Assembly: GCA_023396615.1 (NCBI GenBank)
Contig: JAEWVM010000009.1
Span: 966-64,965 of the forward strand
Length of the DNA: 64,000 bases
Direction: 5' to 3'
From: Spirochaetota bacterium
GTDB lineage: Bacteria > Spirochaetota > UBA4802 > JAFGJZ01
The notes beneath the pieces were generated by a model that saw only the letters and a program-made list of their open reading frames with translations, was not told the origin of the DNA and made no database searches. Shown here piece after piece: positions 2,357 through 40,696 of the stretch. How positions within the stretch are numbered: position 1 is the stretch's first letter; the number at the start of each line of letters is the position of its first letter. The translations under genes were made by a program, and so were the position numbers.

Positions 2357-3991
2357 ATGAGCTTTTTTTCAAAGCATAAATATCTGATTCTAATTGCATT
2401 ATCTGCCGTTTTGCTGAGAATTCCGGCCTATTTTAATGATTATTATGACGTTGATGAGCTTTCTGCAATAGTTCAGACTAAACAGTACTTTTCCGGTCTC
2501 ACACCCGGAATGGATTTCAAAGAAAGCAAGCACCCTCTGTATCACGCTCTGTTTAAAGTCAGTTACGGCATTAATGAAGATTACGGCTGGGTTATACTGC
2601 ATATTCTCGTTTCTTTAATTGTTGCACTTACCGGAGCTGTAATATACAGAACAACCAAGGAAATTACCGATAAATCAAAAACAGCTTTTACCGCAGGAAT
2701 ACTCTATACTATTATGATCTGTTCATTCAACAGATACTTTATGGCTACGAATGGTGAAATTGTATACAATTTGCCCGTATCAGTTGGAGCATTATCGATA
2801 GTGCTTTTTCTAAAAACTGATAAAATGTTAAATAAGATATTATATCTGTTGCTGTTAGCTTCCTCTTCTGCAATAAGTGCAGGAATAAAATTTCACGGTT
2901 TAATTATTTCCATAATCGCGGTTTTCTTTTTTCTGTTTATTCTTCCTTTGAGAGAAGGAAGAATAAACAGAAAATATGCAATAACAATGTTGTCTGTTTT
3001 ATCTGTGTTTATTGCAATTTTTGCAGCAGATTATTTTATTTATGGAAAAATTACACACAAAATTATCAACGATATTTCATCAAAACTTCGATATGCGACT
3101 CTTGTCTACGGATTGGAACCTCTCTCTCTAATTTTAAAATTCATTCACAGACAGGGTTTGCTGACAATTTGGCATCCATTAATCTGGATTTCATTTTTTG
3201 CTTTTACTATAAGTTTTTTCAAAAATAGAGATTTTTTTAAAACTGAAAGAACCCGTTTATTTATAATAATATCGGCAATTATCACCTATCTGATGGTTTT
3301 TGCTGGAGGTAAACGGCTTTATTTTCACTATTTCATGACATCATATCCGTTCATATGCATGGTAAGTTCATTTTATATTGAAGAAAGCCGGAATAAAATA
3401 TCATTTTTCTTCAGAAAACATTTCAAAAAAATATTGCTAATACCTGCTTTTTTCTTTTTCCTTTTTAACGTAAAAGATGTAATCATTAAACATACCGCAC
3501 CAGAATTGTTTATATTTGAATCGAAAGCATCATACTACTTTAGACTTATTGCTCTTGGAACAACCAATGATTACCTTATGCCGGATAAGCTTTACCACAA
3601 CCTTATTGACTATATAAAAGAAAAAACAATGAAAGAAGATAAAATTTTCGTATGGGGTGACGGCGCTTATATTTATTATTTTTCAGACAGACTACCTGCA
3701 GCATATCACATGTGGCCGAAAGGAACTATAGTGGGAATAACTTCAGCATACAAATCTCAAAATAAAATTGAAATGAAACAGGCTATCCATAATGAAAAAG
3801 CTATTATATTCAACATAGAAAAGTATGATGCAAAACTTATTATCGATACATCCGAAGCAGCAACATCTAAAATGGGATCAATATCTCCATTCTCTTACAA
3901 AATGACACCATTAGTGGATAAATACATCAAATCACATTACAAATTTGAGAAAGAAATAGATAAATTTAAAATTTACAGAAAAATAGAATAA
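2357..3991 (+). CDS. GT39/ArnT-like polytopic membrane glycosyltransferase (PMT_2-like) with C-terminal soluble domain
   Basis: About 11 predicted TM helices over 400 aa, then a hydrophilic ~140 aa tail. Architecture of dolichyl/undecaprenyl-phosphate-sugar dependent glycosyltransferases. Confidence 0.5.
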   Translation: MSFFSKHKYLILIALSAVLLRIPAYFNDYYDVDELSAIVQTKQYFSGLTPGMDFKESKHPLYHALFKVSYGINEDYGWVILHILVSLIVALTGAVIYRTTKEITDKSKTAFTAGILYTIMICSFNRYFMATNGEIVYNLPVSVGALSIVLFLKTDKMLNKILYLLLLASSSAISAGIKFHGLIISIIAVFFFLFILPLREGRINRKYAITMLSVLSVFIAIFAADYFIYGKITHKIINDISSKLRYATLVYGLEPLSLILKFIHRQGLLTIWHPLIWISFFAFTISFFKNRDFFKTERTRLFIIISAIITYLMVFAGGKRLYFHYFMTSYPFICMVSSFYIEESRNKISFFFRKHFKKILLIPAFFFFLFNVKDVIIKHTAPELFIFESKASYYFRLIALGTTNDYLMPDKLYHNLIDYIKEKTMKEDKIFVWGDGAYIYYFSDRLPAAYHMWPKGTIVGITSAYKSQNKIEMKQAIHNEKAIIFNIEKYDAKLIIDTSEAATSKMGSISPFSYKMTPLVDKYIKSHYKFEKEIDKFKIYRKIE

Positions 3992-4731: not shown

Positions 4732-5832
4732 TCAATAAAACTGTCTCATTTCTCCCTTCAGGGATTCGCCGCTGATATCTGCAAATTCTTTTAGCAGCTC
4801 TTTTTGTCTTGCATTAATCTTTTTAGGAACAGTTACATTTATCCTTACTAATAAATCTCCTTTTCCATGCGAACCGATGTAAGGCATTCCGCTTCCGCGA
4901 AGCCGGAATATCTGATTATTCTCGGTTCCTTGCGGAATTTTCATTTTCAGTGTCTGATTATAAATTGTAGGAACTTCTATATCGCCGCCGATGACCGCAA
5001 GAGGAAAGGAAATATCGACCGTACATACCAGATCATTTCCGCTTCTTTCAAAATATTTATGCTTTTTAACATGAATCAGGACATAAAGATCTCCCGGGAT
5101 TCCTCCCCCCTGAGCGTGTTCTCCTTCGCCCGTTATCTTCAAGCGTGAACCCGATTCAACACCCGCCGGAATTTTAATAGTTATTTTGCGTTTCTTAGCA
5201 ATAAGTCCTGTCCCGTTACATGATTTGCACGGTGAAGAAATAATTTTCCCCTGACCATGGCATTTATAGCATGTCTGTGTAACAGAAAAAAATCCCTGAG
5301 CCTGACGAATTTGACCGACTCCGTTACACACCGGACAAGTGATTGGTTTTGAACCGGATGCAGCACCAGTCCCTTCACATGAAGTACATGGTTCGTGACG
5401 CGGAATTTCTATCTGTATTTCTTTGCCGGTTGCAGCCTCTTCAAGTTCTACCGCTAAATCATACTGCAAATCGGATCCGCGTTTCTGACGCTTGCCGCGC
5501 GAAGAAAAACCTGAACCAAAAAAACCTTCAAAAATATCACCGAAATCAAAATCTCCGAAAATATCTGAAAAGTCGCGGTATGCGCCTTTCCCGAAACCGT
5601 CAAAATTACCGACACCTTCATGACCGAACTGATCATACTGCGCCCGTTTTTTAGAGTCTCTCAATACTTCGTATGCTTCGGTGGCTTCCTTGAATTTTTC
5701 TTCAGCCTCGGCATTTCCCTTATTTCTATCCGGATGATATTTTAAAGCAAGCTTACGGTATGCTGATTTGATCTCATCATCGTTAGCACTCTTCGCTACA
5801 CCGAGTATCTCATAGTAATCTCTTTTAGCCAA
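4732..5832 (-). CDS. dnaJ: Chaperone DnaJ
   Basis: J-domain DYYEILGV...HPD, G/F-rich region, four CxxCxGxG zinc-finger repeats. Confidence 0.95.
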
Positions 5833-19394: not shown

Positions 19395-19733
19395 ACTCAT
19401 TTTCGGAATTATTTAGAGCGCAGTAATTCATTTTAACTTATGAAACCCTAAACATCGATACATCGGGGGAAGAAAGTCTTACCTTAATAAATAATATTCC
19501 ATGATTCAATCCGCAGCTCATTCCGATTAAGAAGCAAACCTAGATTGAGAGCTTACCTGATAGACGGAATTAGTAAAACAATTGAAGTAAAATTCATTCA
19601 AGATTGATCATGTTCAAATATATCATATAAAATATGGGTAAACAATACTTTTGAATAAAGCATCCGAAACGTTCAAAACATATGTATAAACTAATTGACT
19701 TGTAGCACTTTTTATTATTGTCTGACCCAGTAT

Positions 19734-20546
19734 ATGAATATTCTCAAAAAACATCTCTTAAACATTATCGGAGCTTCAGTACTCGCTTTGAGCATATCGG
19801 GTCTTATTACCGGTACCGCCCGGATAGTCATACATCCAGGCGAAAAAACCAGACAGACAGCGCCCAAAGTATTTCAGGCAGAAAATACGGAAAAAATCAC
19901 CGATTATAATTTCATACTGAATTCAAATTTTTTTCAACTTTCCACCGCTCAAAGCTCAGAAAACGTTCAATCGGCTTCACCTGCAAATTTAATACTGCTG
20001 GGCACGGTTACAGGCTCACCTTCACTGGCCAGAGCAATGATAAGATCCGCTTCAGAAAATAAGGTCGAAATATTCAAAATAGGATCTTCAGCATGGGGCT
20101 ATACTCTCGTCAGAATTTTGAAAACCAAGGTATTATTGAAATCAGGTTCCAACGAATTTGAACTCGACATGCTTAAACAAGAAGGTTCCTCATCCGGTCC
20201 GCAATCAGGATTTCAGCCTGCAACAAAAAAGACAATAAGCAAAGCTGAACTTCTCACAAAAATTCAGGGCAATATGGACAATATGCTGAAGGGAATGAGA
20301 GCCGGACCCTACCGTGAAGACGGTCAGATCAAAGGGTACAAGATTATGGGACTCAGTAAAGACAATATGCTTTATGAACTTGGAATCCGTCAGGGAGACA
20401 TCATTATGAGAATAAATGGTCATCCAATTGACAGCACTCAGAAATTGTTTGAACTTTGGCAGAAGCTTCCGCAGGAGCCGAAGGCACTAATTGACATTAA
20501 ACGCGGAAATGAAACAACGACTCTCGATTATACTTTTTCGAATTAG
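19734..20546 (+). CDS. gspC: Type II secretion system protein C (GspC) with C-terminal PDZ domain
   Basis: N-terminal TM anchor; C-terminal PDZ (GYKIMGLSKDNMLYELGIRQGDIIMRINGHPI). First gene of the gsp cluster. ATG at 19734 chosen over the track's 19695. Confidence 0.55.
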   Translation: MNILKKHLLNIIGASVLALSISGLITGTARIVIHPGEKTRQTAPKVFQAENTEKITDYNFILNSNFFQLSTAQSSENVQSASPANLILLGTVTGSPSLARAMIRSASENKVEIFKIGSSAWGYTLVRILKTKVLLKSGSNEFELDMLKQEGSSSGPQSGFQPATKKTISKAELLTKIQGNMDNMLKGMRAGPYREDGQIKGYKIMGLSKDNMLYELGIRQGDIIMRINGHPIDSTQKLFELWQKLPQEPKALIDIKRGNETTTLDYTFSN

Positions 20547-20552
20547 GTGAAT

Positions 20553-30446: not shown

Positions 30447-31306
30447 ATAGAATAAACGAAATCTTCAGAAAAATATTTCAATATGCAAAAAATCTTTACG
30501 ATGATGCAAAGGCGCACCCTTTTTTTAAACGCTACGTTGTTTTAACCTGCATATTGACAGCAGTATTCACTCTTATTCTTTTTCCGGTTGATACAATAAT
30601 TTTAAAAGTATTAAGAGATGCCGAAGGTAAGTCTTTTCAATCCGCCGAAGTTTCAAATCTTAAAGCTTCTTTATTCGGCGATATTTCAATTGATTCAATG
30701 AAAATCAATCTCCGGTCACGTGAAGAAGTTTCGATCAGCAAGTTTGATTCAACAATATCAGTTTTCTCTCTGATTAGGGGCAATGCTGACGGGGAAATCA
30801 ACTCCGAACAGTTTTCTTTTTCGTCGCCTAAGTTCAAGTTTACATCAAAGATAAAACTGATTCCTGATGCGGAATACAGCACCAAAACAGGTATTTTTAC
30901 AAACGGCACTCTAACAGTGAAATTAACCAACTCACTGCTGGAAGGATTATCAATTGCCGGATTTAATATAAAACCGGCAAACATTGAATCTGTAAACGGA
31001 GAAATCCTTTTTCAGGACAAGAAATATAATATTAAGGTCATTAAAATTGACGGTCAGTCGCTCAGGGGAACCATAACAGGAACAATTATTCCGAACGAAA
31101 ATAATTTTTCGCTCTCCGTTCTCGACATCAGCTGTTCATTTGATCCCCAGTCCGGAATGTTCGACGATTACCGTATGCTTATCAACTATCTTATAGATAA
31201 AGACAGCGGGAAAATACTCATCAAACTTAAAGGAACAATTGCTAATACTGAAGTAATTACTCCAAAAATGAATATGCCTCAAATGGAAGCAAAAGATGAC
31301 AAATGA
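30443..31306 (+). CDS. gspN: GspN-like protein
   Basis: Single N-terminal TM then a beta-rich periplasmic region; last gene of the cluster; overlap with gspM. Confidence 0.4.
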   Translation: MNRINEIFRKIFQYAKNLYDDAKAHPFFKRYVVLTCILTAVFTLILFPVDTIILKVLRDAEGKSFQSAEVSNLKASLFGDISIDSMKINLRSREEVSISKFDSTISVFSLIRGNADGEINSEQFSFSSPKFKFTSKIKLIPDAEYSTKTGIFTNGTLTVKLTNSLLEGLSIAGFNIKPANIESVNGEILFQDKKYNIKVIKIDGQSLRGTITGTIIPNENNFSLSVLDISCSFDPQSGMFDDYRMLINYLIDKDSGKILIKLKGTIANTEVITPKMNMPQMEAKDDK

Positions 31307-31637
31307 AATGGATTTAATCATCAAAAAGACCGGAGAACTCGGAGAAAAAATATCTCAATCAGAAATTTTTCTCGCATACAAGAAAGCTTCTGCAGAGCTC
31401 ATGGCCAATCAGGATTCTTTCGACAAAGTAAAACGCTTTACCCGTCTTTCGGCAGTAATGAGAGAAAAACAGCATTATGCCGAAGAAATTACACAAAGCG
31501 AGATGGATGAAGTACAAAGTCTCGCGCAAAATGTTTTTGATGACGAGATAGCCAACAACTACATCGAAGTGCAAAACGCTTTCAGCTCTCTGATGAATGA
31601 TATTTTTACTGAAATTGAGATGAAAAAATCTTTTTAA
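31296..31637 (+). CDS. YlbF/YmcA-family (UPF0342) regulator-like protein
   Basis: Helical 113-aa protein; ...GEKISQSEIFLAYKKASAELMANQDSFDKVKRF... resembles the N-terminus of B. subtilis YmcA/YlbF. Overlaps the gspN end by 11 nt. Confidence 0.45.
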   Translation: MTNEMDLIIKKTGELGEKISQSEIFLAYKKASAELMANQDSFDKVKRFTRLSAVMREKQHYAEEITQSEMDEVQSLAQNVFDDEIANNYIEVQNAFSSLMNDIFTEIEMKKSF

Positions 31638-31720
31638 CCCGTTTTTTTCAAACTTCTTGACACGGAAAAGCAAAAATTGTAGAATTATATAGAGATTATT
31701 TTGTTGATCCGGCGGCAAAA

Positions 31721-32098
31721 ATGAACGAAAAAAGAAAGTTTAAACGTTACGAATGCAAAATCAAAGTCCGCTTCGAACACACCGAAGAGATGAACAGCTC
31801 TACTGAAGAAATCCCGGGTTTTAAAGGAAAAGGACACATCCTCGACATAAGTCAGGGCGGAATTTTTATCGCAACGGATACAAATGTACCGGTAAGCTGC
31901 GACATCCTGGTTACTTTCAAAACTGAATCCCGGATTTTTGAAGAGAAGGGATTCATTGTCAGAACCGGAACTTTGAAGAATAATCCTGCAGAAGTCGTAA
32001 AAAAATTTGAAAATTATGATATCAAAGAAAAATCCTACATCGCGATTCAGTTTGAAAACCCGATAGACAATATCAATCAAATGGAATTTCACGGCTGA
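31721..32098 (+). CDS. PilZ-domain c-di-GMP receptor
   Basis: RKFKR (RxxxR) and DISQGG (DxSxxG) motifs. Confidence 0.7.
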   Translation: MNEKRKFKRYECKIKVRFEHTEEMNSSTEEIPGFKGKGHILDISQGGIFIATDTNVPVSCDILVTFKTESRIFEEKGFIVRTGTLKNNPAEVVKKFENYDIKEKSYIAIQFENPIDNINQMEFHG

Positions 32099-32099
32099 T

Positions 32100-32987
32100 A
32101 TGCAGACTCAATTTGTATACATTGATGATATCACCAAGATTGACTCATCCAAAGCAACCGTATATGATCTGAACAAGAGATATATTGATTCTGAAGGGAA
32201 TATGTACGGCCTCAAATACAACCGCGAATCAAAAAAAATTGAAGTCATAAGACTTCTGAGAACATCAATGCAGCATGCACAGATGGTCGCGAAAAGAATG
32301 AAGGAAAAAATGAAAGCGGAACTGCCGAAACTTTCATCTGACGAAGAAATAATTTCCAACAGCGTAAATCACGACACGCCGGAAACATTTGAAGAAACTG
32401 AAGAAACTTATTCAAGCGACACCAAAATAGTACCGGACATGTTTGTAGCCGACAGGTTCAACGATCTTCCGATCTTCAAAGAAAGGCTTAAGGGTCTTTT
32501 AAGAAATGTTGCTAATTCGAACATCAACTCGCGCGAGCACCGCGAAATTTCAACGCCGCTTGATGAGGTTATCCGCAATATCGAAATTGACGGATTAGGA
32601 AAAATCGAAAAAATAACCTCCTCTTACAGGGAACTCACTGAATACCCGAGATCAATCAATTATTACATCGGACGTCTGGATAACCGGGCAAGAGAAATAC
32701 TTAACAATATTCACGCTGATTCAAAAAAGATAAAATTCATCCTTTGGATGGAAATGCTTCACTCGCTTAAGGAATTTTATCAGTCAGTCGGCAAAATGCT
32801 GATATCGCTTGAAAGAAACCTTGAAAAAACAGCAGAGGACCGCCTGTCAAAAATAGGCGCGCTTGAACGTCAATCGTACACTGACGCACGAACCACCATA
32901 TCCAATACAAAATCCGACATTGAAGAAATGTCGAGAAAGCTGAATGATTTCGAACTGTTCATTTACAGTTCGGACAATGTCTGCTAA
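32100..32987 (+). CDS. Hypothetical protein (helical, no recognised domain)
   Basis: 295 aa; starts 2 nt after the PilZ stop. Confidence 0.4.
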   Translation: MQTQFVYIDDITKIDSSKATVYDLNKRYIDSEGNMYGLKYNRESKKIEVIRLLRTSMQHAQMVAKRMKEKMKAELPKLSSDEEIISNSVNHDTPETFEETEETYSSDTKIVPDMFVADRFNDLPIFKERLKGLLRNVANSNINSREHREISTPLDEVIRNIEIDGLGKIEKITSSYRELTEYPRSINYYIGRLDNRAREILNNIHADSKKIKFILWMEMLHSLKEFYQSVGKMLISLERNLEKTAEDRLSKIGALERQSYTDARTTISNTKSDIEEMSRKLNDFELFIYSSDNVC

Positions 32988-33349
32988 TTGTTTTCTGTTT
33001 TTCTTAGAATTTCTTCTGCAAATATTTTCAGCTTCGGATGAACCTTCGGTTGGGGAAGACTGATTTTATTTTCTTCCTTTTCGGTATTATCTTCTTCGCG
33101 TATCAGCTTGGTAAATGCAAAAATCATGCGGTCGAAGATTTCACTCACACGGTCTTCTCTTCCGGCCATTTTATAGTATTTATAAGCGAAAAGCGGCATT
33201 TTTTTATCAAAGTAAAAATAATCGGCAATTCTTGTTAATCCGTCCTTATACATTGTGCTGACGAATATTTTTTCTGCCTCGGTGAGCTTCCCCTCATTAA
33301 AAAGCTCATTGCCTTTTCTTATCAATGCCGCGCGTTCGGAACTATCCAT
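32984..33349 (-). CDS. Hypothetical small TPR-like protein
   Basis: 121 aa; overlaps the tex start by 8 nt. Confidence 0.4.
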   Translation of the reverse strand: MDSSERAALIRKGNELFNEGKLTEAEKIFVSTMYKDGLTRIADYFYFDKKMPLFAYKYYKMAGREDRVSEIFDRMIFAFTKLIREEDNTEKEENKISLPQPKVHPKLKIFAEEILRKTENN

Positions 33350-35489
33350 CGGTCTTCCTTCTGAGAGAAATTCTCTTCAGCTCTTTATCGACAGAAATAA
33401 CCTCCGTCATTAGGGTTTCACCGACTTTTACAGCCTCAGAGATGTTTGAAATAAACTTATCCGAAAGATTGGATATATGAATCAATCCGTCCTGATGTAC
33501 TCCTATATCGACAAAAGCACCAAAAGCGGTAACATTCGTTACTACACCCGACAGCACCATTCCTTCGCGCAAATCATCCAGAGTTCGTACTGAACTGTTA
33601 AAATCAGCATACGAATACTGCTTTCTAGGATCGCGTCCCGGCTTTGAAAGCTCTTTTAATATATCATCAAGAGTATATGTCCCGGCCGATGAATATTTCT
33701 TTTTATCAATACGTGAAAGCAAATCCGGACTTAAAATTAAATCATTCAGACTAACACCCGCGTCTTCAGCTATCTTCATTACAATGGAATAGCTCTCCGG
33801 GTGAATAGCGGATGAATCAAGCGGATTTGAAGCGTCCTTAATACGAAGAAAAGCGGCACACTGCTCAAACGCTTTTTCTCCAAGACCGCTTACTTTTTTA
33901 ATATCCGTTCTGGACTTAAAACCCTTAAGCTCATTTCTTTTTTTAACAATTTTAGCTGCAAGAGAACTTCCGACACCGGATACATAAGAAAGAATTTCAA
34001 CAGATGCAGTATTAACGTCGACACCGACCTTATTAACGCACAATTCAACTGAATCTTTCAGAGCATCTTTAAGCTCCTTCTGGTCAACATCATGCTGATA
34101 CTGACCGACGCCTATAGCGCATGGATCTATTTTTACAAGTTCAGACAAAGGATCCTGAAAACGGCGTGCGATATTAACGGCACTTCTTACGGTAAGATCG
34201 AGATCCGGAAATTCCCGTCGTGCAGTTTCTGACGCGGAATATACCGAAGCCCCCGACTCGCTCACCATAACGACAGGAATTTCTTTTGGAATAAAATCTT
34301 TAATGAAATCTTCAGTCTCCCTTCCGGCGGTTCCGTTTCCTATCGCGATAAACTCAACTGAAAATTTATCGATTATCTTTTTTACAGCAGCCTTTGCCTC
34401 TGCTTCCTTCTTTTGAGGTTCATGAGGGAAAATAACATCATATCCGAGAAATTCATTCGTTTTGCCTATGACGGCAAGCTTGCATCCGCTTCTGAAGCCC
34501 GGGTCAATTCCAAGAATAGTTTTGCCTCCGGCGTACGGCGACAGAAGAAGATTTTCGAGATTATCTGCAAAAATTGATATTGAAAATTTTTCGCTTTTTG
34601 AAATATAGTTTCGGAGAACTTCGTTTGAAACCGATGGAAGAATTAGCCGTTTAAGCGAATCGAGCGCGGCTTTTTCTATTTCTTCCGAAAATATATTCTG
34701 TTTCTGAATATAATCTTTTTTTATTTTTCCGAGAAAAATATCTTCATTCTCGGCATCGACGCTAATCGAAAGCACTCCTTCGTTTTCTCCGCGCCGCAGA
34801 GCAAGAATTCTGTGCGGCGGTTCTTTTGATATCGCAGATGAAAATGAATAATACTGCTCGTATTTTGTACGTTTATCCTTATAATCTTTTTTAACCTTTG
34901 ATGAAATGATTCCTTTTGAGGTTATCTCTTCGCGGACGGTTTTTCTTATGCCGCTGTTTTCCGATATCATTTCCGCAATGATATCAAGAGCGCCGCTCAA
35001 AGCTTCATCGGCAGTATTAACCTGTTTTTCAGGATTGATAAACCTTTTCAATATTTCGGATTTTTCTTCTTTTCCGGCTGAATGCAGAATGATTTCTGCA
35101 AGCTCCTCAAGTCCTTTCTCCCGTGCAATCGACGCACGTGTCTTTTTTTTGGGTTTATACGGAAGATAAATATCTTCAAGCATATCAGAGTCACTGCAGC
35201 CGATGATTGTCTTTTTCAATTCATCAGTCATCTTTCCCAGTGATTCTATTACACCGATGATATAATCTTTGCGTTCTTCGAGTGATTCAATCTCTTTATA
35301 TCTTCTCGAAATATGAAGAACCTGCTTTTCGTCCATGTTTCCGGTCATTTCTTTTCTATAACGGGAGATGAACGGAACAGTACTGCCGTCCTTCAGCAGT
35401 TTGATTGTATTTATAACATAAGAAGATTTTACTTTAATTTCAGCCGAAATGATTTCGGCAATTGCTTCTGCTTCAATCATTATAAACAA
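33342..35489 (-). CDS. tex: Transcription accessory protein Tex
   Basis: HTH, YqgF/RNase H-like, HhH and a C-terminal S1 domain (…GMVLSGVVTNVTAFGAFVDIGVHQDGLIHIS…). Confidence 0.9.
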   Translation of the reverse strand: MFIMIEAEAIAEIISAEIKVKSSYVINTIKLLKDGSTVPFISRYRKEMTGNMDEKQVLHISRRYKEIESLEERKDYIIGVIESLGKMTDELKKTIIGCSDSDMLEDIYLPYKPKKKTRASIAREKGLEELAEIILHSAGKEEKSEILKRFINPEKQVNTADEALSGALDIIAEMISENSGIRKTVREEITSKGIISSKVKKDYKDKRTKYEQYYSFSSAISKEPPHRILALRRGENEGVLSISVDAENEDIFLGKIKKDYIQKQNIFSEEIEKAALDSLKRLILPSVSNEVLRNYISKSEKFSISIFADNLENLLLSPYAGGKTILGIDPGFRSGCKLAVIGKTNEFLGYDVIFPHEPQKKEAEAKAAVKKIIDKFSVEFIAIGNGTAGRETEDFIKDFIPKEIPVVMVSESGASVYSASETARREFPDLDLTVRSAVNIARRFQDPLSELVKIDPCAIGVGQYQHDVDQKELKDALKDSVELCVNKVGVDVNTASVEILSYVSGVGSSLAAKIVKKRNELKGFKSRTDIKKVSGLGEKAFEQCAAFLRIKDASNPLDSSAIHPESYSIVMKIAEDAGVSLNDLILSPDLLSRIDKKKYSSAGTYTLDDILKELSKPGRDPRKQYSYADFNSSVRTLDDLREGMVLSGVVTNVTAFGAFVDIGVHQDGLIHISNLSDKFISNISEAVKVGETLMTEVISVDKELKRISLRRKTDG

Positions 35490-36217
35490 ACCGGACTTAT
35501 AGTATTTACATATTCTTCAGCTTTATCGATAAAAAGTTCAGAGCCTGAAAACTTTTTTAAAATATAAAAATCTTTCTTTGAAGAATATCTCTCATTCCAC
35601 TCTTTAATAAATTTCTTTGACAAAGGCAGATAAGACCAATGCCACTTTTCTTCCTGATAACCGGCACTTCTGCCGGCAGTAAAGGGCTGCGCAAAACCGT
35701 ATCGGGCGGCATTTACAACAAGCCAGGTATATAGAATCTGACCGTCACCGCTTTCGAAAAATGTATTATTTAGCGAATTGATGTCAAAGTCAGTTCCCCA
35801 GTGATGACGGCTGGTTCCCGGCATCGATGAATAATTCAGAATATTTATGCCGCGTTTATATAAATTCTTTTCTTTGGAATAAGACCCGTTCCACTTAGAA
35901 TTCCAGATACGGGCCTGATCGTCATATGTTCTTGTGGAACTTATCACGGTAATCTTTATCGAAACTTCTTTCTGATTATTTCTTGTGCGTTCTGAATTTA
36001 ATTCTTTAATATATGAATCGAAAGCTGCAGACATTTTTTCAAGCGCGTAAGCGGCCTCTTTCCGCAGATGATGAGTTTTAGAATCAGTCCGTATAAATGT
36101 TTTTTTCAGATTGATAAAAGATGAATCTGATGACGGATTAATTCCGCCGGCAAGGTCTTTCAGCTCATAAGCAAAGGCAAAAAACGGGATTAAGATTCCA
36201 AAAACAAGTTTTTTCAT
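35480..36217 (-). CDS. Secreted M15-family (VanY/LAS) D-Ala-D-Ala carboxypeptidase-like metallopeptidase
   Basis: Signal peptide; SRHHWGTDFDIN matches the SxHxxGxAxD zinc-ligand motif. Confidence 0.6.
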   Translation of the reverse strand: MKKLVFGILIPFFAFAYELKDLAGGINPSSDSSFINLKKTFIRTDSKTHHLRKEAAYALEKMSAAFDSYIKELNSERTRNNQKEVSIKITVISSTRTYDDQARIWNSKWNGSYSKEKNLYKRGINILNYSSMPGTSRHHWGTDFDINSLNNTFFESGDGQILYTWLVVNAARYGFAQPFTAGRSAGYQEEKWHWSYLPLSKKFIKEWNERYSSKKDFYILKKFSGSELFIDKAEEYVNTISPVCL

Positions 36218-39037: not shown

Positions 39038-40696
39038 ATGAAATATCTTATAACGCTTTTTCTATTCATTGCTTTTACGGCCGATATGGGAGCTAAAGAC
39101 TTGGCGGCAATAGAATACAAGATAGATAATCCCGATTCGTCTTTTACAAGAGAAACAGGCAGGGATTATGCCAAGCTCATCGCAATTTCAGCTAATGTAA
39201 CAAAAGGTTTGAACATATACAACCCCTTTCAGCTTGAAAAGGATATATCAGGAATGGGAATATACCCGGAAAGAAATCTTACTCTCGAAAATCTTTCAGC
39301 ACTCTGCGCAACCAGATATATCGATTACGCTATAAGCGGAAAGCTTTACAAAGTTTCGAAGGGATTCAAATCAGAAAGTATTCTCTATTCGGCAGACACC
39401 AAAAGCATTATTTCAAGATCGAGCTCAACAGCCGCAACAATCAATGAACTCGCAGGAAAAGATGCACTGAAACTTTTTTCATTCATTAAAAATAAACCTT
39501 CCGCAAAAGTAAAGCAAACAAAAACAATCGCTCTTCTTCTTGATTCTTCTTACAATATGAACGAGGAATTGCCGGAAACAAAAGAAGCAATAAAGGATTT
39601 CGCTCTCGGCATTTTTTCCGACTATCCCGGAAGTAGTATTTTCGTACTTCCTTACAATAATAAGACTCCCCTTCGTTCAATAGAGGCTCCCGCAAGCAGT
39701 CTGATATCAATAGAAGCCCTTCTGTCAAAAATCAAACTTAACGGCGGAAACGACGACGCCTCATTTACAAATGCGCTAAGTTTTGCGGTTGAAAACATGA
39801 GATGGAATAAAACTTCTGACAATTCAATATTCATAATATCCAACTCATCTTTCAAGGATTCATTAAACGCATCAAGATACGCAAGAAGAGCGGCCAACAA
39901 AAAAATAGCAATCAACTGCATGATACTCGGAAAAACCTCGGGAAATGATTCGATAAACTATTCAAGATTATCAGACATGTCGCGCGGTTTCTCTGCGGAT
40001 GTTTCCTACCGCCAGACGCTGTATGACATAAAAGGTAAAGATTTCTATCTATATTACGAACGCGCAAGATTATTCGAAGGAGCCTCGGACGAAAAATACT
40101 GGCAGAATGGTCTGTTTAAATATCCGCAGAAAAAACGTTTCGGATACGCAAAAGGTCCGGGATTCGCCGATGAGATTTTTGTTAAAAAAGGCAGTAGCAT
40201 CAATCCGTATAACATGTCGGAATATTACCGCAAAAACGGAGAACGGGGATTTATAAACGCAAAAAATGTCGAATCGAATATCCGTAAAGCCATTCTCGGT
40301 TTCAAACAGCTTTCAACTGAGACTCATACAAAAAGTAAACTTGCACGGGTTCTCGTTTCGCAAGGCGGCATATCTTTATGGATCGATGTTTATGACACTG
40401 ATTCGCTTGATTTTTTTACGAAAAAGAAAAACCTGGGATATTCACTCCCTCTTGGTGTAATCATTCAGCAAAAAAAAGATGAACCCTACGGATTCACTTT
40501 CAATCCATATAAATATGTGACAGTGTTCAGCGGCGAGTTTATACCGGAATCGGTAAAAATTTCACTTCCTGATATCGCTAAAAACCCTAAAAAATACATG
40601 GATGGAAGCTTCATGAATCCTTCTCTATGGTTTGTTGAAGTTAAAGTTGAAGAAGTACGCACCATTGAGTCAAGTGATGACGTACGCGGCGGTTAA
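39038..40696 (+). CDS. Secreted protein with central vWA-like domain
   Basis: Signal peptide; ...IALLLDSSYNM... (MIDAS-like DxSxN), ...LNGGNDD..., ...IFIISNSS... Confidence 0.4.
   Translation: MKYLITLFLFIAFTADMGAKDLAAIEYKIDNPDSSFTRETGRDYAKLIAISANVTKGLNIYNPFQLEKDISGMGIYPERNLTLENLSALCATRYIDYAISGKLYKVSKGFKSESILYSADTKSIISRSSSTAATINELAGKDALKLFSFIKNKPSAKVKQTKTIALLLDSSYNMNEELPETKEAIKDFALGIFSDYPGSSIFVLPYNNKTPLRSIEAPASSLISIEALLSKIKLNGGNDDASFTNALSFAVENMRWNKTSDNSIFIISNSSFKDSLNASRYARRAANKKIAINCMILGKTSGNDSINYSRLSDMSRGFSADVSYRQTLYDIKGKDFYLYYERARLFEGASDEKYWQNGLFKYPQKKRFGYAKGPGFADEIFVKKGSSINPYNMSEYYRKNGERGFINAKNVESNIRKAILGFKQLSTETHTKSKLARVLVSQGGISLWIDVYDTDSLDFFTKKKNLGYSLPLGVIIQQKKDEPYGFTFNPYKYVTVFSGEFIPESVKISLPDIAKNPKKYMDGSFMNPSLWFVEVKVEEVRTIESSDDVRGG

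Follow-up and report, generated by a model that had tools for sequence, protein, structure and literature searches.

Do the four small genes that follow a complete type II secretion system (T2SS) cluster in DNA of a Spirochaetota bacterium form a single module for the control of secretion? The locus lies in a stretch of 64,000 nt, hereafter the window, to the whole of which all coordinates refer. A preliminary description had proposed that a ylbF-like gene, a pilZ gene, a gene for a 295-aa protein and a convergent gene for a 121-aa protein (p121) are attached to the secretion genes as a control layer. Our analysis leads to a different picture. Three independent transcription units have probably come to lie side by side here, in this lineage only, and the core of the region would be an autonomous cyclic di-GMP (c-di-GMP) effector pair composed of PilZ and its 295-aa partner.

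Reading of the open reading frames (ORFs) found the four genes where they had been described (Table 1). As judged by comparison with relatives at 90-97% identity, all of them are under purifying selection, with ratios of nonsynonymous to synonymous substitution (dN/dS) of 0.02-0.12; therefore none is a chance ORF and the four are real genes. Reading of the junctions confirmed the reported 11-nt overlap of ylbF with gspN: the ylbF ATG is at 31296 and the gspN stop codon, TGA 31304-31306, is found inside the ylbF frame. A single nucleotide lies between pilZ and the ATG of the 295-aa gene, whose stop codon in turn overlaps that of the convergent 121-aa gene (32984-32987). Contiguity at the end of an operon, even with overlapping stop and start codons, can stem from recent rearrangement, so no module should be proposed until synteny has been compared across relatives.

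Homologues of the 295-aa protein were scanned with one genome per species, giving 80 loci with 10-kb flanks, and later look-ups brought the collection to 100 loci (1.47 Mb). All proteins of the window neighbourhood were searched against these loci. The word-index search returned 66 homologues of the 295-aa protein, all from metagenome-assembled genomes of uncultured Spirochaetota/Leptospirales. A pilZ gene was located directly upstream of the 295-aa homologue in 82/82 loci retaining upstream sequence. The distance between the pilZ stop and the next start was -4 to +7 nt in 72 of these 82 pairs, a spacing that, by its length, is typical of translational coupling. Most of the 82 loci carry no gsp gene within 10 kb. 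Instead, the upstream neighbour is a divergent pyrG gene (CTP synthase) in 56 of the 73 loci with at least two upstream genes, and beyond it are found rpoN, hpf, hprK and ptsH. Genes downstream of the pair are variable in the other loci (mfd, M16 peptidases and others). This distribution indicates that the pyrG-rpoN-hpf-hprK-ptsH neighbourhood is the ancestral position of the pilZ-295 pair. The five genes are present upstream of pilZ in L002, L024 and about 50 other loci, and the linkage is lost in the window lineage. pyrG was not found among the window ORFs scanned, where a 544-aa ORF at 2357 gave no Pfam match. In one locus (L076, 7756-9975), the open frame carrying the PilZ domain runs about 600 codons further upstream with no Pfam match; a stretch that happens to lack stop codons is more probable here than a true fusion.

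Secretion genes accompany the pair in a restricted set of genomes. Both gsp genes and ylbF adjoin it only in L004-L006, L084/L085 and L088-L095, where identity of the 295-aa protein to that of the window is at least 59%. Activated-sludge samples are the source of L089-L095. Loci L004-L006, 96-97% identical to the window, were the sole ones with gsp and ylbF in the 80-locus scan. In L084 (295-aa identity 59%), gspN (about 44-45% identity at the protein level), ylbF (51%), pilZ, a 294-aa gene, the convergent 121-aa gene, Tex and VanY follow each other in the same order as in the window. In L001 (295-aa identity 54%), HydF is directly upstream of pilZ, and neither ylbF nor a T2SS is present. Since gsp and ylbF are confined to the window lineage while the pyrG context prevails elsewhere, the T2SS neighbourhood of the pair is derived and peculiar to that lineage. 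Gene order is thus not conserved with the T2SS in relatives for pilZ, the 295-aa gene and p121, three of the four, which are found without gsp in most of the 82 related loci. The proposal of a four-gene module controlling secretion is contradicted by a pair that is invariant mostly without gsp genes and has its own promoter-like element, and by the location of p121 in an operon of opposite orientation. Because of the ancestral pyrG position and of the many loci with no nearby T2SS, the output of the pair is predicted not to be secretion-specific. The tempting story of a YlbF/PilZ control layer for type II secretion is hence removed as unsupported.

The 83-nt gap between ylbF and pilZ contains the best sigma-70-like match of the region, TTGACA-17-TAGAAT (11/12 consensus positions), 35 nt before the pilZ ATG. 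A 12/12 match is found at the equivalent place in L084. Matches of at least 10/12 occur within 130 nt upstream of pilZ in 45% of the 82 loci, compared to 3% with random and 5% with shuffled sequences, and 18 of these 37 matches are at 32-36 nt from the pilZ start codon. They would fit a pilZ gene that starts a transcription unit divergent from pyrG in most genomes. No intrinsic terminator or terminator-like hairpin was detected on the + strand between 31637 and 31721. At the other end of the pair, in the window, L001, L004-L008 and L084, the 295-aa and convergent 121-aa genes either have overlapping stop codons or end at most 2 nt apart. There is no intergenic space for a terminator between them, and any such element has to be inside the opposing coding sequences.

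The first protein of the pair was identified as PilZ with both motifs intact, as previously described. The 125-aa protein matches Pfam PilZ (PF07238) with E=2.9e-8 and 34.4 bits (cut-off 22.5), RxxxR being R5-R9 and DxSxxG being D42-S44-G47. Both RxxxR and [DN]xSxxG are intact in 83/83 orthologues, whose identity to the window protein goes down to 33% (median 40%). The subfamily has a signature of its own, an invariant loop R81-T82-G83...N88-P89, and dN/dS for pilZ is ~0.05. Stand-alone PilZ adaptors relay c-di-GMP to a separate partner, as do Xanthomonas PilZ with FimX/PilB, Pseudomonas MapZ with CheR1 and YcgR with the flagellar motor. The window PilZ resembles them in being small and single-domain; it has canonical RxxxR/DxSxxG motifs but carries no output domain, and action through a partner protein is therefore implied. 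It differs from them in three respects: its partner comes from an uncharacterised family for which no fold relative could be recognised, the two genes form a hard-wired bicistron with coupling-type spacing, and nothing points to a link with pili, flagella or chemotaxis.

The partner had been described as having no recognisable domain. This holds for Pfam, in which no domain was found, and for the fold, since comparison of the predicted model gave no informative match; a profile-sequence search of the family against the PDB also returned nothing meaningful. The claim does not extend to NCBIfam, where the protein matches NF047778, the 'LIC_10450 family', with E=2.7e-32 and 112.6 bits, under the equivalog cut-off of 150 bits. 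An exhaustive profile search of 1.84 billion representatives recovered only 171 relatives, which marks the 295-aa family as small and of narrow distribution. About 32 representatives (E <1e-77) make up a first tier, which corresponds to the window subfamily, and NF047778 is matched by all 32 members of its alignment. The second tier includes genuine Leptospira LIC_10450 proteins, P0122 (L. koniambonensis, licerasiae, venezuelensis and others) and P0139. These two score 512-517 bits with NF047778 and match the window-family profile end to end (positions 3-280; E 1e-41 for P0122 and 1e-33 for P0139). As judged by these profile matches, the window protein is a divergent member of the LIC_10450 superfamily.

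The AlphaFold (AF2) model of the 295-aa protein has a mean predicted local distance difference test score (pLDDT) of 80.7. It predicts an N-terminal alpha/beta domain (residues 1-55), a basic helix (57-73), a disordered acidic linker (75-107) and four long helices within residues 112-288 (pLDDT >90). Invariant residues of the family form two clusters, VYDLNKRYID..GNMYGL in the N-domain and E178, Y182-P183-R184 and Y188-Y189 in the bundle loop. The most conserved stretch of the N-domain includes an RxxD sequence, RYID (R27-D30; window 32178-32189), which is invariant in all 32 pilZ-paired homologues; the unpaired Leptospira P0122 has K-Y-L-D there. RxxD is also the c-di-GMP I-site motif of GGDEF domains. 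The motif is short enough for its occurrence in RYID to be due to chance.

The window family and the Leptospira LIC_10450 proteins have in common an N-terminal domain, a variable linker, a C-terminal helical domain and a YPRS..YY loop. The window protein, with 295 aa, has a shorter linker than the Leptospira proteins (~370 aa). Genomic contexts are also different: Leptospira LIC_10450 genes are found beside rpsT-glmM-glmS and are not preceded by a PilZ gene, while members of the window subfamily have pilZ upstream in every case. In L. koniambonensis (L096, 5411-6000), a gene-free stretch of 590 nt, including a hairpin-like segment at ~5576-5691, precedes the LIC_10450 gene. Neither a cryptic or degenerate PilZ nor a c-di-GMP riboswitch or other Rfam element was found in this gap. 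In L099 (3708-4004) and L100 (3720-4004), the start of the LIC_10450 gene is overlapped by 4 nt by an ORF of 94-98 aa, which is not PilZ. Downstream of the Leptospira LIC_10450-family genes, a conserved 264-aa protein with no Pfam domain is encoded.

LIC10450 is a hypothetical protein, 2.9-fold up-regulated in host-adapted L. interrogans (PMC3953431). A family known as 'hypothetical' in pathogenic Leptospira, and induced there upon host adaptation, is hard-wired to a canonical PilZ in sister lineages. The pairing provides a first functional lead for this family, towards c-di-GMP signalling. The PilZ inventory of L. interrogans comprises four single-domain PilZ proteins (LIC_10128, 11447, 11993 and 12491), none encoded beside LIC_10450 (PMC12943098). 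The pairing in sister lineages suggests that one of these orphan single-domain PilZ proteins may be the unlinked partner of LIC_10450. The PilZ-LIC_10450 pairing is absent from the Leptospira PilZ inventories (PMC12943098, PMC11800159), and no description of the linkage was found in the searchable literature. While partner-dependent PilZ receptors are known, a hard-wired pairing with the LIC_10450 superfamily does not appear there.

We propose the following working model. The gsp operon would end, in the window lineage, with a small YlbF/YheA-like helical protein (unit 1). A bicistron with its own promoter-like element (unit 2) would produce, through translational coupling, roughly 1:1 amounts of a single-domain PilZ and of a 295-aa cytoplasmic protein of the LIC_10450 superfamily. 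PilZ would bind c-di-GMP via its canonical RxxxR and DxSxxG motifs, and the two proteins would act as a receptor-partner complex, probably a 1:1 receptor-adaptor complex. The N-terminal domain of the 295-aa protein, a novel one in that no fold relative was found, and its conserved bundle loop (E178-Y182-P183-R184...Y188-Y189) would constitute the output or adaptor surface. An opposite-strand VanY-Tex-p121 operon (unit 3) would have its last gene abutting the pair, and a rearrangement would have placed pilZ-295 beside the T2SS.

The ylbF-like gene is the one member of the group with a possible tie to secretion. Its 113-aa product is YlbF-like, as had been described: it matches Pfam Com_YlbF (PF06133) with E=5.4e-18 and 65.8 bits (cut-off 23.9), residues 8-108 aligning with profile positions 1-101 of 105. 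With the NCBIfam YlbF/YmcA equivalogs (PRK13676 models), scores were only 34, 22.9 and 16.9 bits vs cut-offs of 223, 177 and 130. The closest solved relative by sequence is YheA (UPF0342, 117 aa; 2oee) with E=0.08. The window protein shares with B. subtilis RicF (YlbF), RicA (YmcA) and YheA the Com_YlbF helical core of ~100 residues, and it is similar to YheA in size and best PDB sequence match. Unlike RicF and RicA, it has no cysteine, ends at the Pfam core with no C-terminal tail and scores far under the equivalog cut-offs. In B. subtilis, RicF (through C134 and C146) and RicA (through C141) coordinate a [4Fe-4S] cluster together with RicT; these cysteines, located in C-terminal tails of ~25 residues, are essential (PMC6751060). 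The absence of such a cysteine-bearing tail weakens the analogy with RNase Y specificity factors drawn in the preliminary description. None of the genes scanned in the 64-kb window encodes RicT/YaaT (PSP1), RNase Y or a second Ric paralogue. The 113-aa protein shares the YlbF fold family, but this does not allow it to be assigned the role of an RNase Y specificity factor.

Co-transcription of ylbF with the secretion genes, also claimed previously, stands in part. The gene overlaps the gspN stop in L084 too, by 4 nt vs 11 nt in the window, with 45% identity for GspN and 51% for YlbF. Because this overlap recurs, it is plausible that ylbF closes the gsp operon in the window lineage. Searching the 100 loci with a YlbF hidden Markov model showed it only in 13 T2SS-adjacent loci. 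For more distant relatives, a word-index search reached only sequences of at least 80% identity and a metagenome pattern scan only those of at least 90%. A search for GspN homologues gave six matches, of which one distant locus, L086, was usable. This T2SS, which is of the same GspN type (gspD-N; GspN 27% identical), has an IspH/LytB-like gene after gspN and no ylbF. The gene (L086 10872-12605) encodes a 577-aa LytB/IspH-like protein with a faint UbiA match and overlaps gspN by 11 nt; it is a different terminal 'passenger' at the operon position occupied by ylbF in the window. No description of a linkage between YlbF and T2SS was found in the literature.

If c-di-GMP controls this T2SS, a simpler route may be offered by GspE. 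The window carries a complete cluster, gspC-D-E-F-G-H-I-J-K-L-M-N (19695-31306), upstream of ylbF, with a GspN of the Leptospira type. GspE has an MshEN N-domain (Pfam E=7e-8), similarly to V. cholerae MshE and P. aeruginosa PA14_29490. Its N-terminus (22346-22520, +) shows two near-intact MshEN motifs of 24 residues each, KKIGEILVQNGELTQTELEAILKLQ and, after the linker KDTGL, RFGEALLKRGAVTEEALLRALSKQ. The key Arg is kept in motif 2, whereas motif 1 has a Lys at this position, unlike canonical MshEN ATPases. L. interrogans GspE is reported to lack both MshEN Arg residues, and MshEN is an established route of c-di-GMP input to T2SS/type IV pilus-type machines (PMC12943098). The window T2SS may hence sense c-di-GMP directly through GspE; this likeness belongs to gspE, and not to the 'tail' genes. 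No c-di-GMP riboswitch or other Rfam element was found between 19000 and 36500 in the window.

The 121-aa gene belongs, on syntenic grounds, to the tail of a VanY-Tex-p121 operon that converges on pilZ-295. In the window, its first 8 nt are shared with the end of Tex. In every locus that has it, it is on the strand opposite to the pair and directly downstream of Tex or VanY, often with an overlap of 5-7 nt in related loci. Elsewhere it is 3-4 kb away from the pair, with M16 peptidase genes in between. Its product is the most conserved protein of the neighbourhood, with 81% identity to L084 vs 57% for Tex and about 44-45% for GspN, a conservation unusual for a small uncharacterised protein. Homologues occur in L001, L002, L007-L011 and L084. 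The TPR-like label given to it previously is weak, as TPR_1 is matched with E=0.33 and 11.3 bits (cut-off 27.8); 8 of 13 homologues also give sub-threshold TPR_1 matches (best E=0.013). The family profile matches the Sel1-repeat structure 6ork with E=1.7e-4 over residues 11-65.

How do other explanations compare with three juxtaposed units? That the four genes are one T2SS accessory module, combining YlbF-RNase Y post-transcriptional control with PilZ-mediated c-di-GMP control of secretion, would account for their physical contiguity with gspN, for the gspN-ylbF-pilZ-295-p121 order kept in the 59% outgroup L084, for the lack of a detected terminator between ylbF and pilZ and for the selection acting on all genes. 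We regard it as very improbable, since it appears largely refuted by synteny: pilZ-295 is constant in 82/82 loci, most of them with no gsp gene inside 10 kb, with its own conserved promoter-like element, and p121 is part of another operon on the opposite strand. In addition, the distant T2SS of L086 does without ylbF, the YlbF-like protein lacks the Fe-S ligand tail of RicA/RicF, and with the near-intact MshEN motifs of GspE a separate PilZ would be unneeded for c-di-GMP input. A more limited tie, in which only the YlbF-like protein serves the T2SS as a lineage-specific cytoplasmic accessory (for example as a factor in the assembly or stability of the GspE/L/M/N platform or of gsp mRNA) and pilZ-295 is an unrelated neighbour, is possible, although we doubt it. 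In the window as in L084, ylbF begins before gspN has ended, despite 45-51% identity, the gene was found only where gspN adjoins, and its dN/dS is 0.07-0.12. Nevertheless, ylbF is absent after gspN in L086, and no relatives below 51% identity were traced, so that co-occurrence with gspN is inseparable from shared ancestry; moreover, no precedent was found in the literature and YheA-type proteins have no known function.

Other alternatives concern the pair itself. Persistent adjacency is, in general operon biology, characteristic of physically interacting products. The two genes could instead be co-expressed neighbours whose products form no complex, the 295-aa protein being independent of c-di-GMP, as its unpaired Leptospira homologues presumably are. 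We consider this unlikely: while the Leptospira LIC_10450 genes have no adjacent PilZ and no pilZ-295 gene fusion was seen, adjacency persists in 82/82 loci with coupling-type spacing, in proteins diverged to ~30-40% identity and with all other neighbours changing. It is fairly improbable that the rearrangement brought pilZ-295 partly under the gsp operon, so that the pair is co-induced with secretion and takes no mechanistic part in it. The lack of a + strand terminator-like hairpin in 31637-31721 and the maintenance of the arrangement from the window to L084 would agree with such secondary coupling; retention of a strong internal promoter-like element (11/12 and 12/12) suggests that independent initiation still matters. 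A bolder version, improbable in our view, takes the pair for an undescribed c-di-GMP receptor-effector system, present across the sampled Leptospira-related Spirochaetota, with a new-fold N-domain and a helical-bundle output. Captured in the window lineage behind a T2SS operon with a near-intact MshEN motif in GspE and a cysteine-free YlbF-like last cistron, it could, via read-through, have given rise to a hub, peculiar to this lineage, in which secretion responds to the level of c-di-GMP.

Some points weigh against our reading of three units with an autonomous PilZ-partner pair. What the sequences show directly is the order and spacing of the genes, the conserved motifs, the promoter-like element, the purifying selection and the family assignments. 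From these we infer c-di-GMP binding, physical interaction between PilZ and its partner, and independent transcription; binding is predicted from RxxxR and DxSxxG, and the promoter from a sigma-70 consensus match only. With no terminator detected between ylbF and pilZ, read-through from gsp into pilZ-295 is possible in the window lineage. No PilZ adjoins the genuine Leptospira LIC_10450 genes (L096/L097, L099 and L100), and the partner family can therefore function without a dedicated neighbouring PilZ. Finally, the view that ylbF is not a general T2SS appendage comes from the single distant locus L086, a thin sampling.

Table 1. Features of the locus, with their positions in the window and the basis of each assignment
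Feature	Position	Strand	Basis
gspN, last canonical gene of the gspC-N T2SS operon	30443..31306	+	NCBIfam TIGR04411 T2SS_GspN_Lepto, 76.3 bits vs cut-off 50
YlbF/YheA-like gene, 113 aa, cysteine-free; plausible lineage-specific terminal gsp cistron (unit 1)	31296..31637	+	Pfam Com_YlbF
Predicted sigma-70-like promoter element TTGACA-17-TAGAAT in the ylbF-pilZ gap	31657..31685	+	11/12 consensus match
pilZ, predicted single-domain c-di-GMP receptor, 125 aa (unit 2, first cistron)	31721..32098	+	Pfam PilZ and motifs
295-aa gene of the LIC_10450 superfamily, probably translationally coupled to pilZ (unit 2, second cistron)	32100..32987	+	NF047778 match
121-aa gene (p121), weakly Sel1/TPR-like, predicted last gene of the VanY-Tex-p121 operon (unit 3)	32984..33349	-	Synteny, family profile
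Tex (unit 3, upstream gene)	33342-35489	-	Pfam Tex domains
VanY-like peptidase (unit 3, upstream gene)	35480-36217	-	VanY in syntenic loci

Elsewhere in the window, two large ORFs on the + strand, 2357-3991 (544 aa, mentioned above) and 39038-40696 (552 aa), matched no Pfam family at E <=1e-5.

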